NCBI GenBank assembly: GCA_045863335.1
Contig: BTVY01000005.1
Span: 1 to 64,000 of the forward strand
Length of the DNA stretch: 64,000 nucleotides
From: Candidatus Hydrogenedentota bacterium
GTDB lineage: Bacteria; Hydrogenedentota; Hydrogenedentia; Hydrogenedentales; SLHB01
Direction of reading: 5' to 3'
In this document: positions 47,264 to 51,416 of the stretch, piece by piece
Position numbering within the stretch: position 1 is the stretch's first letter
Layout: each line of letters begins with the position of its first letter
Translations under genes and position numbers: made by a program
Notes under the pieces: model-generated
Told to the model about the DNA's origin: nothing
Databases searched by the model: none
What the model saw: only the letters and a program-made list of their open reading frames with translations

Positions 47264-47291
47264 TAAAGTTTCCTCCCCCGTCTGCCGATAG
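47264..47291 (+). promoter_or_regulatory. sigma28 (FliA) promoter of flagellin 1
   Basis: TAAAGTTT-N12-GCCGATAG. Confidence 0.75.
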
Positions 47292-47331
47292 ACCTCCATG
47301 AAGCCCGCTAGTGCGCGGCCGCTTCTACCGA

Positions 47332-47368
47332 TGCACGGATGCAAAGGTAGGTAGTCATCACGGAGGAG
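47332..47368 (+). promoter_or_regulatory. Two putative CsrA sites in the flagellin 1 leader
   Basis: TGCACGGATGCA hairpin with GGA in the loop; second ACGGA overlapping the GGAGGA SD. Confidence 0.65.
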
Positions 47369-47375
47369 ATTAGTC

Positions 47376-48197: not shown

Positions 48198-48227
48198 TCC
48201 GGCGACAATCAAAGTTAGTTCCAATAT

Positions 48228-48266
48228 GGAGCGCCTCCTTAGCGAGGCGCTCCTGTTATTTTGTTT
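48228..48266 (+). terminator. Intrinsic terminator after flagellin 1
   Basis: GGAGCGCCTC/GAGGCGCTCC 10-bp stem then TGTTATTTTGTTT. Confidence 0.8.
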
Positions 48267-48533
48267 GCGCGATCTACCGCGAAGCCGGTTCCGCAGTACC
48301 TCCCGAATCCGCAAATTTCTGGAATCTGCTGATAAAGATCTTTTGCCGCCTGGTTATTAGTTGACAAGTATCAATCTGAAATTCCAAGGCAGGCGCGAAA
48401 GCGCGGCTTGCATTAAGTCATTTATAAAAAATGGCTTACGAGATAGACAGGCAAGGCCTTCTATGGTTTTTCTTAACTCTGTAAATTAATTACTTGCCCC
48501 TGAATACCCCGAAAATTTCTTTCAAAAAAACGC

Positions 48534-48560
48534 TAAAGTTTCCACTAAAGTTGCCGATAA
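48534..48560 (+). promoter_or_regulatory. Consensus sigma28 promoter
   Basis: TAAAGTTT-N11-GCCGATAA exact consensus; AT-rich upstream region. Confidence 0.9.
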
Positions 48561-48566
48561 AAATCG

Positions 48567-49072
48567 TAGAAAGGCCGGAATGGACCCAGTCGATACCGGC
48601 TAAAGCGAAAGGCAGGGACGGCCAATCGCGCGCGCCAGGGACGGCGCGGAAACAGTTGAAATGCGGTCACAGCGGAAGATTGGGGGAGACCTTCGCCCGA
48701 ATCGGTCAACCGCGGCGCACGTTAGGGACACGCGCCAGCGGCTCAGCCGGGAACGACCGCCTTGCACACCCGGGACGGTGAGCAAGGACGGCGCCGGAGG
48801 GGGAAACAAACACGCCAATCGCCTGCGGGGTAAGGGAACCCGCGCAGAACAGCTAACCAACCGCGAAACAGGGATGACGAGACGTAGTGCAGCGGACCCG
48901 GAACGGGCACACAGGGAAGTGCGCGGGGTACGAAGCACGAAGTCTCTTCGGACTGCGGCAGTCTTGTAGGGAAAGACCGTCGCAAATGGAACCGGCCGAA
49001 AGGGACGGCGGGTTTCACAGGGATGATGTGCGCATGGATGCGCACGGCTAACCACTCACGGAGGACAGAACT
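48567..49072 (+). ncRNA. CsrB/RsmZ-like multi-GGA RNA forming the long leader of flagellin 2
   Basis: 26 GGA, 14 ANGGA and 0 TCC in ~510 nt; many short stems present the GGA motif in loops; no credible ORF. Confidence 0.7.
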
Positions 49073-49891
49073 ATGGGTCTCAGGATCAACACCAATGTAG
49101 GCGCGCTCAATGCTTCCCGGATTCTCGCCCGTTCGACATCCCAGTTGAACACGAGTCTGGAGCGCCTCGCCAGCGGGCTTCGCATCAACCGGGCAGCGGA
49201 TGATGCGGCGGGACTGGCAATTGCGGAAGGCTTCCAGTCGGTCGTGCGCGGCACGCAGGTCGCCCAGCGTAACGCACAAGACGGCGTCAGCCTTGTGCAG
49301 ACCGCCGAAGGCGCGCTGAGCGAAACGACCAACATTCTGCAACGTATTCGCGAACTGGCGGTCCAGGCGGCCAACGGTACGCAGAGCACGGAAAACCAGG
49401 CGGCGCTCAACAACGAAGTCCTGCAGCTCCTCGACCAGATCGACGATATCGCATTTGACACCGAGTTCAACGGGCTCCGGGTGTTGAGCGGTTCGCAGAC
49501 GGTGACCTTGCAGGCGGGCGCGCAGCAGGGACAGACCCTGCGCATCGTCGTCCAGGGCGCGTCAACCCGCGACCTGGGCATCAGCGCGGTGCGAGTGTCG
49601 AACGCGGCATCCGCCGTGGCGGCCTTGAGCACCGTGGACCGCGCGATTCGCAGCGTGACCTCGTTGCGCAGCGACCTCGGCGCCTTCCAGAACCGCCTCG
49701 AGTTCACCATCAACACCCTGGCGATTCAGGAAGAGAACTCGGCGGCGTCCGAAAGCGCCATCCGCGACGCCGACATCGCCCGAGAGACCATTACGTTCAC
49801 ACGAAACCAGATTCTGGTCAGTGCGGGTACGTCCGTGCTCGCCCAATCCAATCTGATTCCTCAGACCGCGTTACAGCTTCTCGGCGGCTAA
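49073..49891 (+). CDS. fliC: Flagellin 2 (272 aa)
   Basis: Conserved N- and C-terminal flagellin motifs. Confidence 0.96.
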   Translation: MGLRINTNVGALNASRILARSTSQLNTSLERLASGLRINRAADDAAGLAIAEGFQSVVRGTQVAQRNAQDGVSLVQTAEGALSETTNILQRIRELAVQAANGTQSTENQAALNNEVLQLLDQIDDIAFDTEFNGLRVLSGSQTVTLQAGAQQGQTLRIVVQGASTRDLGISAVRVSNAASAVAALSTVDRAIRSVTSLRSDLGAFQNRLEFTINTLAIQEENSAASESAIRDADIARETITFTRNQILVSAGTSVLAQSNLIPQTALQLLGG

Positions 49892-50096
49892 ACCGCCGGG
49901 GTGATGGGGTAAATCGAGCTTCACCACTGGCCGGGGCATCGGCCCCGGCCGACAGGTGAACTCCGTCCGGAAGGGAGGTGATTGAGACCGCGACACGGTA
50001 CCGCCGCCGGCACGTGCGCCGTGGCGAGTAACCAGGCAGTTGTACACGCAGTTGGGGTAGGGATGCCCCGACATGCCACTCAAGGAGGGTAAAACT

Positions 50097-50912
50097 ATGG
50101 GACTTAGAATCAATACGAATCTTGCCGCGCTTAACGCGGGACGTATTCTGAATCGTTCAACGGATGCGTTGAACGTCAGTCTGGAACGGTTAGCAAGCGG
50201 GCTGCGCATCAACCGGGCGGCGGACGACGCTGCCGGTTTGGCAATCGCCGAGGGATTCCGCTCGGTGGTGCGCGGCACCCAGGTTGCGCAGCGCAACGCG
50301 CAGGATGGCGTGAGCCTCGTGCAGACCGCCGAAGGCGCGCTGAGCGAAACCACGAATATCCTGCAGCGCGTGCGCGAACTGGCAGTCCAGGCCGCGAACG
50401 GAACGCAAAGCACGGAAAACCAGGCGGCGTTGAACAACGAAGTCTTGCAGTTGCTCGACCAAATCGACGATATCGCTTTCGACACCGAGTTCAACGGAAT
50501 TCGCGTGCTGAGCGGTTCGCAGACGGTGACGCTGCAGGCGGGCTCGCAACAGGGACAAACCCTGCGCATTGTCGTGCAGGGCGCGTCGACCCGCGACCTC
50601 GGCGTCAGCGCCGTGCGTGTTTCGAACGCGGCGTCCGCCGTGGCGGCATTGAGCACCGTCGACCGGGCCATTCGCAGCGTGACGTCCTTGCGCAGCGACT
50701 TGGGCGCATTCCAGAATCGACTCGAGTTCACCATCAATACCCTGGCGATCCAGGAGGAGAACTCGGCCGCGTCGGAAAGCGCCATCCGTGATGCGGATAT
50801 CGCCCGTGAGACCATCGGGTTTACCCGGAACCAAATCCTGGTAAGCGCAGGTACTTCGGTGTTGGCGCAGGCGAATGTGTTGCCGCAAACGGCATTGACG
50901 TTGTTGCGGTAG
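50097..50912 (+). CDS. fliC: Flagellin 3 (271 aa), near-identical to flagellin 2
   Basis: Same motifs; AAGGAGG SD before ATG 50097. Confidence 0.96.
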   Translation: MGLRINTNLAALNAGRILNRSTDALNVSLERLASGLRINRAADDAAGLAIAEGFRSVVRGTQVAQRNAQDGVSLVQTAEGALSETTNILQRVRELAVQAANGTQSTENQAALNNEVLQLLDQIDDIAFDTEFNGIRVLSGSQTVTLQAGSQQGQTLRIVVQGASTRDLGVSAVRVSNAASAVAALSTVDRAIRSVTSLRSDLGAFQNRLEFTINTLAIQEENSAASESAIRDADIARETIGFTRNQILVSAGTSVLAQANVLPQTALTLLR

Positions 50913-51015
50913 AAACGCAGGAACCGCGGGTAGGGATGTCCGCGGGATTGGCCGGAGATCGGGTACGGGTCCCGGCGAGTAACCTGCGGGTCCTGACCGC
51001 CCAGGGAGACGACCG

Positions 51016-51360
51016 ATGGGAGTACGAAGCGTGACGGGATCAGAGCTGCGCGCTCTGAACGATCCGTCGTTGGCTCGGACTCCTTCTGGAGGCGTTCCCG
51101 CGTCAGCGCCAAAAGAAGCGGCGCAACAGGCGCCCGAAAGTCCAAAGCCGGCGAAAGTAGAGGCGCGCGAAGTTGAACGAGTTCAATTGACCGAAGGAAC
51201 GGGTACGCGACTGCGGATCGATAACGAGAGCAAGCGTATTATTGTGCAAATCGTGAACGACGCGGACGAGGTGATTAAGCAGATACCTCCCGACGATCTG
51301 CTGCGCATCGCGTCCAAGATTCGCCAGATTCAAGGTCTGTTGTTTGACGAGAACGCGTAA
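51016..51360 (+). CDS. flaG: FlaG-family flagellar protein
   Basis: IIVQIVN...EVIKQIPPDDLLRIA..GLLFDENA; downstream of flagellins. Confidence 0.9.
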   Translation: MGVRSVTGSELRALNDPSLARTPSGGVPASAPKEAAQQAPESPKPAKVEAREVERVQLTEGTGTRLRIDNESKRIIVQIVNDADEVIKQIPPDDLLRIASKIRQIQGLLFDENA

Positions 51361-51386
51361 CGCGCCATTGATTTGATTCCCGTAGA

Positions 51387-51416
51387 GCGCCCCGGTGGTT
51401 AACGCCACCGGGGCGC
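51387..51416 (+). terminator. Stem-loop after flaG
   Basis: GCGCCCCGGTGG/CCACCGGGGCGC 12-bp stem; weak U tract. Confidence 0.55.

Follow-up and report, generated by a model that had tools for sequence, protein, structure and literature searches.

What is the function of half a kilobase of strongly folded, apparently untranslated RNA in front of a flagellin gene? The question is raised by a metagenome-assembled genome (MAG) of Candidatus Hydrogenedentota (6.75 Mb, 99.4% complete, 60% G+C), of which the first 64,000 nt of contig BTVY01000005.1 were analysed (hereafter, the window). Three flagellin genes (fla1, fla2, and fla3) lie there in tandem on the plus strand and are followed by a flaG-like gene, all confirmed by Pfam. 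The promoter of fla2, of the sigma28 type, ends 512 nt before the ATG of this gene, and the leader is predicted to be ~505 nt long. An earlier reading of the sequence (the original prediction) described the region as a CsrB-like sponge for the RNA-binding protein CsrA, built into the flagellin leader. Our own reading, held with moderate confidence, is that it is a multi-site CsrA-binding leader, acting as a repressing element in cis and as a sink for CsrA in trans. CsrA binding, the number of dimers bound, and the effect on the CsrA pool are all inferred from sequence and modelled structure.

The base composition of the leader is extreme. Manual counts of 26 GGA, 14 of them as A.GGA, had been given for positions 48534-49072, and both were reproduced; this segment also contains 13 GGGA, and T accounts for 62 of its 539 bases. 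The accompanying statement that TCC is absent had to be narrowed to the transcribed part (48560-49075), because the promoter spacer contains one (gtTTCCac). In 1000 dinucleotide-preserving shuffles of 48560-49075, GGA occurred 17.14 times on average (standard deviation 2.75), with none of the shuffles reaching 26, and TCC occurred 3.40 times (standard deviation 1.52), with 2.3% having none. Segments of 540 nt across the 64-kb stretch contain 10.1±3.6 GGA and 10.5±3.6 TCC, and the fla2 leader is the most extreme of them in GGA relative to TCC. Genome-wide (134,082 segments of 500 nt), the difference of GGA minus TCC has a mean of 0.25 and a standard deviation of 5.7, and the leader, at +25, ranks 11th when distinct loci are counted. 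Judged from their starts, nine of the ten higher-ranked loci are short tandem repeats or a G-rich repeated element, and the remaining one (on C57) has a single reading frame that stays open over its whole length. A coarse search of the genome for GGA hairpins with 4-bp stems was unspecific: many coding regions scored higher than the leader, so that it carries no information on other sponge loci.

The leader is also strongly folded. The minimum free energy (MFE) is -219.8 kcal/mol (z = -5.3), a value that none of 100 shuffles attained. A whole GGA is present in 8 of the 12 hairpin loops of the MFE fold, compared with 1.73±1.24 (maximum, 5) in 200 shuffles, a comparison that had been proposed as a check. 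All seven hairpins named in the original prediction are contained in this fold, together with one more, ggc-AGGGACG-gcc (Table 1). Upstream of the operator described below, about eight stem-loops present C-A-N-GGA-N-G in their loops and are accompanied by some fifteen other GGAs, whereas TCC, with which GGA could pair, does not occur. A CCGGAA(A/T)G element is found again at the 5' end of the leaders of relatives. A helix closing the whole leader is also predicted, between CGUAG (48565-48569) and CUAUG (49071-49075, start codon included), but this pairing is uninformative because it is invariant in the four genus-level sequences.

A DNA search of 41 related genomes gave matches in 32 of them, mostly confined to two ends of the query, namely the promoter together with the first 50-80 nt, and the operator together with the gene start; for the middle of the leader, an alignment was obtained in just two genomes, both of the same genus, with 94-98% identity. 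In a search of the phylum (135 genomes, nearly all of one order), 93 genomes matched; a hand count of the listed rows gave 39 of the 134 other genomes in which both query ends share a contig, the span being 263-698 nt (597 nt in the query). The fla2 promoter is conserved across the order carrying the leader, an uncultured group that is common in sludge and bioreactor samples. The closest public loci, at no more than 95% flagellin identity, are from MAGs of Candidatus Hydrogenedentota/Hydrogenedentes, with a few under other automatic labels. Twenty-two long leaders (312-665 nt from the -35 element, 43-64% G+C) contain more GGA than TCC in all cases (e.g. 27/3, 25/7, 14/1, 19/6, and 13/1), and 12 more from metagenome contigs (233-531 nt) contain 3.38 GGA and 0.68 TCC per 100 nt; the metagenome contigs also yielded 19 short leaders (99-205 nt). 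The number of GGA loops lies above that of every shuffle in 17 of the 22 long leaders (20 shuffles per leader, 200 for the leader in the window). In 20 non-redundant long leaders, the 96 GGAs located in MFE hairpin loops, mostly of 4-7 nt, share the context C (53/96), A (59), G (53), GGA, C (37), G (59), i.e. CAGGGACG, which fits the CANGGANG hexaloop quoted as the high-affinity CsrA form in Dugar et al. (PMC4894983).

GGA-loop hairpins thus recur in relatives, a point on which the original prediction had staked itself. Between 25 and 27 GGAs are kept in the genus and in its nearest relative while the central part falls to an identity of 0.49, 0.39, and 0.34. This pattern is in keeping with selection for the feature itself and not for the sequence, and a feature kept while its sequence drifts is the expected behaviour of a protein-sponge RNA. 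Two stems can be compared in one relative (G004): both sides of the gggt-AAGGGA-accc stem are altered with pairing kept (L006), and the GTCTT/AAGAC stem appears as ATCTT/AAGAT, a compensatory change from G-C to A-U in the paired columns 463 and 480. A metagenome scan revealed no relative above 82% flagellin identity and hence provided no set of intermediate divergence. At 44 flagellin loci of outgroups, the 450 nt upstream contained no similar case, in a comparison confounded by neighbouring coding sequence and unknown promoters.

The last 45 nt of the leader are predicted to form a canonical two-site CsrA operator of the hag/flaA type, with the second site overlapping the Shine-Dalgarno sequence. 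The 22 long leaders, 20 of which are distinct, were compared after anchoring on the GGA of site 1. The distance from this GGA to that of the Shine-Dalgarno sequence is 24 nt in the window and 22-25 nt in all 20 distinct leaders. The four inner pairs of the site-1 stem form in all 20, with a loop of the form A-N-GGA-N, and pairs 5 and 6, for which four to five standard pair types occur, form in 14 of the 20. Site 2 has GGAGG without exception in 21 aligned leaders. The design is repeated, with a different stem, in the short leaders that precede other flagellin genes (15 loci, 13 of them distinct). In Campylobacter jejuni flaA, two GGA hexaloops are 21 nt apart, and the optimum for one CsrA dimer is 18 nt (Dugar et al., PMC4894983).

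RNA data indicate that the leader is part of the flagellin transcript, as had been claimed. Twenty public runs contain part of the stretch, and six of them are RNA libraries; four RNA runs (X1, X16, X17, and X18) were compared as contigs, that is, without ends, strand, or level, and RNA libraries can contain DNA. Metatranscriptome X16, which represents a strain ~97% alike, contributes a contig of 670 nt that spans the junction between leader and gene (48643-49313). The same junction is covered by contigs of 301 nt in X17 (48803-49103) and 263 nt in X18 (48914-49176), so that, in contigs from three runs and two studies, the fla2 coding region is continuous with the 3'-most 430 nt of the leader or more. 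The original prediction had envisaged failure through a transcription start close to fla2 that left the region untranscribed, and the at least 430 nt of leader in RNA contigs speak otherwise. No X16 contig lies on 48204-48642, and this uncovered part was not counted as evidence. The end of fla2 is joined to fla3 and flaG by another X16 contig (49717-51366), and fla3 and flaG appear to be co-transcribed with fla2.

The protein partners that had been listed for look-up are all encoded in the genome, including CsrA, whose absence would have refuted the original prediction. One csrA (L001:1501-1716, 72 aa; 89 bits, cut-off 27) and one adjacent fliW (124 bits) overlap by 20 nt on contig C1, and a FliA/WhiG sigma factor (255 bits against a cut-off of 190) is located on C27. 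A 208-aa open reading frame (ORF) immediately after fliW-csrA (L001:1737-2360, G000:C1) matched no Pfam family at E ≤0.01. The promoter motif claimed for fla2 is present in exact form, and its assignment to FliA agrees with its occurrence before fla1, flgM, and fliD: a relaxed pattern gave 17 genome sites, including those before fla1, fla2, the gene of the FlgM anti-sigma factor (C7), and fliD (C29), and a stricter one gave eight sites compared with three for a reversed control. The sigma28 assignment also draws on the Escherichia coli consensus. The flgM leader (gene at G000:C7:13013-13401) contains 5 GGA and 1 TCC in 89 nt, and the fliD leader (gene at G000:C29:26884-28746, minus strand) contains 7 GGA and 2 TCC in 144 nt, both behind sigma28-type motifs. 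Judged from these sequences, flgM and fliD are likely to be further CsrA targets. A gene for a DUF5610 protein (Pfam, 1.6e-20; G000:C59:27814-28416, minus strand) may be a late flagellar or chemotaxis gene because a sigma28-type motif lies directly upstream.

Neither a coding function nor a known RNA family could be assigned to the leader. ORFs at 48600-49055 (minus), 48661-48969 (plus), and 48494-48781 (plus) had no Pfam match at E ≤1, and the translated central parts of the 22 leaders shared no similarity except for one weak pair. A protein-coding role was therefore rejected, there being no Pfam match and no conserved frame on either strand; long stop-free runs on the minus strand are no evidence for a gene because they are expected opposite a T-poor plus strand. 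No terminator-like site was found from 48534 to 49073 or between fla2 and fla3, the next one being at 51387-51416. The absence of a terminator and of a credible ORF before fla2 had thus been recognized correctly. At the gathering score, no Rfam family matched in the 64-kb window. Csr/Rsm families were found neither in 48200-49300 (E ≤10) nor in the loci of 19 relatives (E ≤0.5), and weak rows for sraL, SorX, and Hrs13 in 48200-49300 (E ≥1) are not relevant. Two aspects of the original prediction accordingly found no support: there is no match to a CsrB/Rsm model that would support membership of that family, and an RNA that has no terminator of its own and continues into fla2 in the contigs does not stand alone. 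For the same reasons, the leader is not to be filed in CsrB/Rsm. It is not a stand-alone small RNA of the CsrB family and is CsrB-like in site density only.

Long leaders share a further motif, [AGT]TTGAA (mostly ACAGTTGAAT), which occurs 95-190 nt past the -35 element in 21 of the 22 long leaders and in none of the 15 short ones; in metagenome leaders, it was found in 9 of 12 long and 0 of 19 short. Its single-stranded fraction somewhat exceeds that of the remaining leader sequence (0.52 vs 0.38; higher in 12 of 18). We take the motif to resemble an RNase E site, and because an RNase E/G homologue is present (on C12), it is possible that this is a ribonuclease processing site. An origin of GTTGAA as a relic of flagellin Q-L-N codons in a decayed upstream gene was rejected as the sole cause because TTGAA is found in only 32 of the 73 flagellin genes there, so that the proposed source is less well conserved than the leader motif. 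Upstream of the motif, 9 of the 22 long leaders contain an internal operator copy (GCAAGGATGC ... CAAGGAGGATG), which includes a Shine-Dalgarno-like CA[ACT]GGAGG ~95-117 nt past the -35 element (L007, L010, L017, L019, L020, L025, L034, and L043). The copy lies as far from the promoter as the real ribosome-binding site does in short leaders, which suggests that it is a decoy site, left over when an insertion behind a short-leader module gave rise to the long leader. In several relatives, the internal copy is followed by GGA-free hairpins, GGGGTGTGCACCCC being an example. An upstream ORF beginning at the internal GGAGGATG was rejected, the frames differing in length and sequence among relatives. 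In one relative, near-matches to the Rfam Acido-Lenti-1 RNA lie upstream of the flagellin promoter (L020:678-732, plus, and 870-924, minus; 33.5 and 33.3 bits at a gathering score of 37, E ~8e-4).

If the fla2 leader is a multi-site CsrA-binding element, several CsrA dimers would load on one molecule. In cis, a dimer held on the operator would leave fla2 untranslated and would also affect fla3 and flaG. Repression would end when FliW, freed by flagellin export, removes CsrA, as in the FliW-CsrA partner switch described for Bacillus subtilis and C. jejuni (PMC7652899, PMC4894983). In trans, each transcript would take several dimers out of the pool, and the late, sigma28-timed leader would leave less free CsrA for weaker two-site targets, namely the fla1, flgM, and fliD leaders. 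Such a decrease would be expected because the mRNA is abundant, late, and equipped with many sites, and even the two-site flaA leader has this effect. A ranking of the flagellins can be drawn, as speculation, from the fact that fla1 has only a short two-site leader: the long leader would free fla1 (and flgM and fliD), and fla2 and fla3 would be repressed longest. A more far-reaching version, which we regard as possible though doubtful, is that the leader is an independent functional analogue of CsrB in the flagellin mRNA of a FliW lineage. It would then be a sigma28-timed, high-capacity sponge, perhaps freed by cleavage at AGUUGAAU, with protein and RNA antagonists acting together and the flagellin order set by competition between short and long leaders for CsrA.

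Several observations weigh against a CsrA sponge. CsrA binding is deduced from motifs, in an uncultured organism. In 5 of the 22 long leaders (L012, L015, L018, L021, and L043), GGA loops do not exceed the best of 20 shuffles, and predicted hairpin loops hold only 96 of the 341 GGAs in the 20 non-redundant ones. Covariation is weak: in an alignment of four genus-level sequences, three of which are at least 94% alike, compensatory changes were found in 12 of 139 predicted pairs, and many pairs are broken in the fourth sequence. The covariation proposed as a check was thus seen in individual cases, such as GTCTT/AAGAC, but not across the fold as a whole. The sparing of GGA columns by substitutions is no more than a trend (2 of 152 cells, made up of 0/76 and 2/76, compared with 40 of 873 elsewhere, made up of 12/437 and 28/436). 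On the transcript side, the start near 48567 is a prediction from the promoter sequence, the RNA contigs show neither ends nor levels, and run X1 is uninformative because it covers the entire 4.6 kb evenly, including the spacers, and may hold DNA. FliW-type systems are described as operating near a 1:1:1 stoichiometry (PMC6529632), with which a high-capacity RNA sink would have to fit. Furthermore, some of the GGA richness could be mutational in origin because the genome is full of short tandem repeats (periods of 6, 7, 10, and others), many of whose units contain GGA, e.g. TGCGGAT and AACACGGACC. Degenerate AAGGGAC units with ~20 A.GGA are present at G000:C59:3340-3530, and further tandem repeats are found at C58:29851, C42:1901, C15:21511-21728, C62:15775-15896, and C5:158915-159034, several of them at contig ends.

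This last point leads to the view that the leader is neutral filler, grown by insertion or repeat expansion in a GGAC-repeat-rich genome, with function restricted to the promoter and the last 45 nt. The fast divergence of the central part and the range of leader lengths among relatives (233-665 nt) agree with it as well, but we consider it most improbable: the GGA excess, the TCC deficit, and the loop placement recur at 43-64% G+C in sequences that cannot be aligned, the program TRF shows no tandem array in the leader (among listed arrays of at least 80 nt), and the fold energy lies far below that of shuffles. A structure maintained for some role other than CsrA binding (binding of another protein, protection from Rho or nucleases, a thermometer, or a riboswitch) would account for the strong fold, the paucity of T, and the conserved 5'-domain hairpins without GGA in several relatives. 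It would leave unexplained why GGA exceeds what dinucleotide composition predicts and lies in loops of the CANGGANG context, in the same design as the undisputed operator; in addition, no Rfam family, riboswitches included, was found in the window or in the 19 relatives' loci, and the central sequence is unconserved, unlike a ligand pocket. We rate this explanation as quite unlikely.

Two further explanations retain CsrA and differ in where the leader acts. The extra GGA hairpins may serve fla2 alone, raising the local CsrA concentration or shielding the RNA from ribonucleases, with tighter repression or a longer-lived mRNA as the outcome and no meaningful effect on the pool. Multi-site CsrA leaders of glgC and hcnA act in cis, and the fla2 leader has a complete operator at its 3' end and runs on into fla2 in the RNA contigs, with FliW available as an antagonist. 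By mass action, however, an abundant late mRNA with CsrB-like site density should titrate, as the two-site flaA leader does in C. jejuni (PMC4894983), and a purely local role sits less easily with the 25-27 GGAs kept in the genus despite sequence turnover; we therefore regard it as rather unlikely, though deserving of attention. The opposite possibility is that cleavage or an internal stop frees a separate, stable sponge RNA, with the 5' domain ending near AGUUGAAU and the mRNA proper lying downstream. The distribution of [AGT]TTGAA between long and short leaders, its more single-stranded state, the RNase E/G homologue, and the internal operator copies upstream of the motif would suit such processing. 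Set against them are the lack of a terminator-like site within the leader and the contigs that join its 3' 430 nt to fla2, and the likeness of the motif to an RNase E site is our assumption; this possibility appears very unlikely.

The features of the locus are compiled in Table 1. The fla1 leader is ~85 nt long with 3 GGA and 1 TCC, and it fits the short, one-dimer leader of the hag/flaA type. The fla1 product is 76-78% identical to those of fla2 and fla3 (78% to fla2). The fla1-fla2 spacer is unusually A/T-rich before the promoter for a genome of 60% G+C, and an A/T-rich tract, gaaaatttctttcaaaaaaacgc (48505-48533), abuts the -35 element on its upstream side and resembles an UP element. No sigma28 motif was found by a scan of the fla2-fla3 spacer.

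Table 1. Features of the flagellin locus and of the fla2 leader (positions in the window)
Feature	Position	Strand	Evidence or remark
Sigma28-type promoter of fla1 (TAAAGTTT ... GCCGATA)	47264..47290	+	Motif scan
Short fla1 leader with canonical two-site operator: GGA hexaloop hairpin ATGCACGGATGCA and CACGGAGGA at Shine-Dalgarno sequence	47291..47375	+	
fla1, flagellin, 273 aa	47376..48197	+	Pfam Flagellin_N 1.6e-40, Flagellin_C 3e-20
Terminator-like hairpin and T tail after fla1, TGTTATTTTG	48228..48263 (hairpin 48228-48253)	+	10 pairs, 8 G-C
Sigma28-type promoter of fla2: TAAAGTTT (48534-48541), 11-nt spacer, GCCGATAA (48553-48560)	48534..48560	+	Exact motif
Long untranslated fla2 leader, 26 GGA, 0 TCC, strongly folded	48561..49072	+	
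5' proximal stem-loop carrying CCGGAATGGAC	48573..48601	+	Fold
Two adjoining hairpins, ggc-AGGGACG-gcc and cgcgcc-AGGGAC-ggcgcg	48611..48648	+	MFE fold
GTTGAA motif within ACAGTTGAAAT	48655..48660	+	Conserved in long leaders
Hairpin cacc-CGGGAC-ggtg	48767..48780	+	MFE fold
Hairpin gggt-AAGGGA-accc	48828..48841	+	MFE fold
Hairpin gcac-ACAGGGAA-gtgc	48907..48922	+	MFE fold
Hairpin gtctt-GTAGGGA-aagac	48961..48977	+	MFE fold
Hairpin gccg-AAAGGGA-cggc	48995..49009	+	MFE fold
Operator site 1 (predicted), GTGCGC-ATGGAT-GCGCAC, GGA in hexaloop	49028..49045	+	
Operator site 2 (predicted), CACGGAGGA, overlaps Shine-Dalgarno sequence	49057..49065	+	
Shine-Dalgarno region ACGGAGGA	49058-49065	+	8 nt upstream of ATG at 49073
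fla2, flagellin, 272 aa	49073..49891	+	Pfam Flagellin_N 2e-41, Flagellin_C 1.5e-22
fla2-fla3 spacer with own GGA hairpin GGGGTAGGGATGCCCC and CTCAAGGAGGG	49892..50093	+	Bridged by RNA contig 49717-51366
fla3, flagellin, 272 aa	50094..50912	+	93% identical to fla2
flaG-like gene	51016..51360	+	Pfam FlaG 9.8e-14
Terminator-like hairpin after flaG	51387..51416	+	13 pairs, 11 G-C

To our knowledge, no Csr small RNA is known in the Hydrogenedentota lineage. A literature search, with subscription journals outside its range, found no paper on both Hydrogenedentes/Hydrogenedentota and CsrA and no long multi-GGA flagellin leader. Antagonism of CsrA is usually presented as having two solutions, sponge small RNAs under BarA-UvrY in Gammaproteobacteria and FliW in flagellated lineages elsewhere. 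Here, a FliW-bearing candidate phylum carries a GGA hairpin array of CsrB scale within a flagellin mRNA leader. The array belongs to a conserved RNA element that measures ~230-665 nt, has no Rfam entry, and is found repeatedly across this uncultured order. If CsrA binds, the principle of an mRNA as both target and sponge would be extended from flaA to a many-dimer RNA, a CsrB-like architecture would have arisen independently, and short versus long leaders would provide a simple model for ranking several flagellin genes. The relevance is to the CsrA and flagellar fields; its main limit is that everything beyond the sequence, the predicted structure, and the contig-level RNA is inference. A CsrA sponge in a flagellin mRNA is not a new principle, since one has been published for C. 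jejuni flaA (PMC4894983). What is new is the scale and the lineage.

The likeness to CsrB is close when both RNAs are analysed with the same script: E. coli K-12 CsrB (369 nt) has 22 GGA (5.96 per 100 nt), GGA in 9 of 14 loops, and 2 TCC, and the fla2 leader (516 nt) has 26 GGA (5.04 per 100 nt), GGA in 8 of 12 loops, and 0 TCC. In GGA density and loop occupancy, therefore, the original comparison holds. Unlike CsrB and RsmX/Y/Z, the fla2 leader is contained in an mRNA, lacks a terminator of its own, and matches no family model, and its promoter is of the sigma28 type, whereas those of CsrB/Rsm depend on BarA-UvrY/GacA. The presence of fliW is anti-correlated with BarA-UvrY (reviewed in PMC7652899). 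The Salmonella fim leader, cited in PMC4894983, resembles the fla2 leader as the 5' untranslated region of a structural gene that sequesters CsrA and thereby sets a hierarchy of appendage genes; the fla2 leader differs in carrying a full operator. The C. jejuni flaA leader likewise belongs to a late flagellin mRNA in a FliW-bearing bacterium, and with two sites it titrates CsrA, the mRNA being both target and sponge (PMC4894983). In comparison, the fla2 leader has ~505 nt, 26 GGA, and eight further GGA-loop hairpins, and its function is predicted, whereas that of flaA has been demonstrated (PMC4894983). B. subtilis hag is a flagellin gene of the sigma28/sigmaD class, with the protein antagonist FliW and two CsrA sites, of which one is part of a stem-loop and the other covers the Shine-Dalgarno sequence (PMC7652899, PMC13443453). 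The fla2 locus shares with the hag/flaA type the sigma28 flagellin promoter, the two-site GGA operator, and a genome encoding both CsrA and FliW, and departs from it in the trait of a short leader for one CsrA dimer. The short fla1 leader has exactly the hag design, to which the fla2 leader adds some 450 nt of upstream GGA hairpins.

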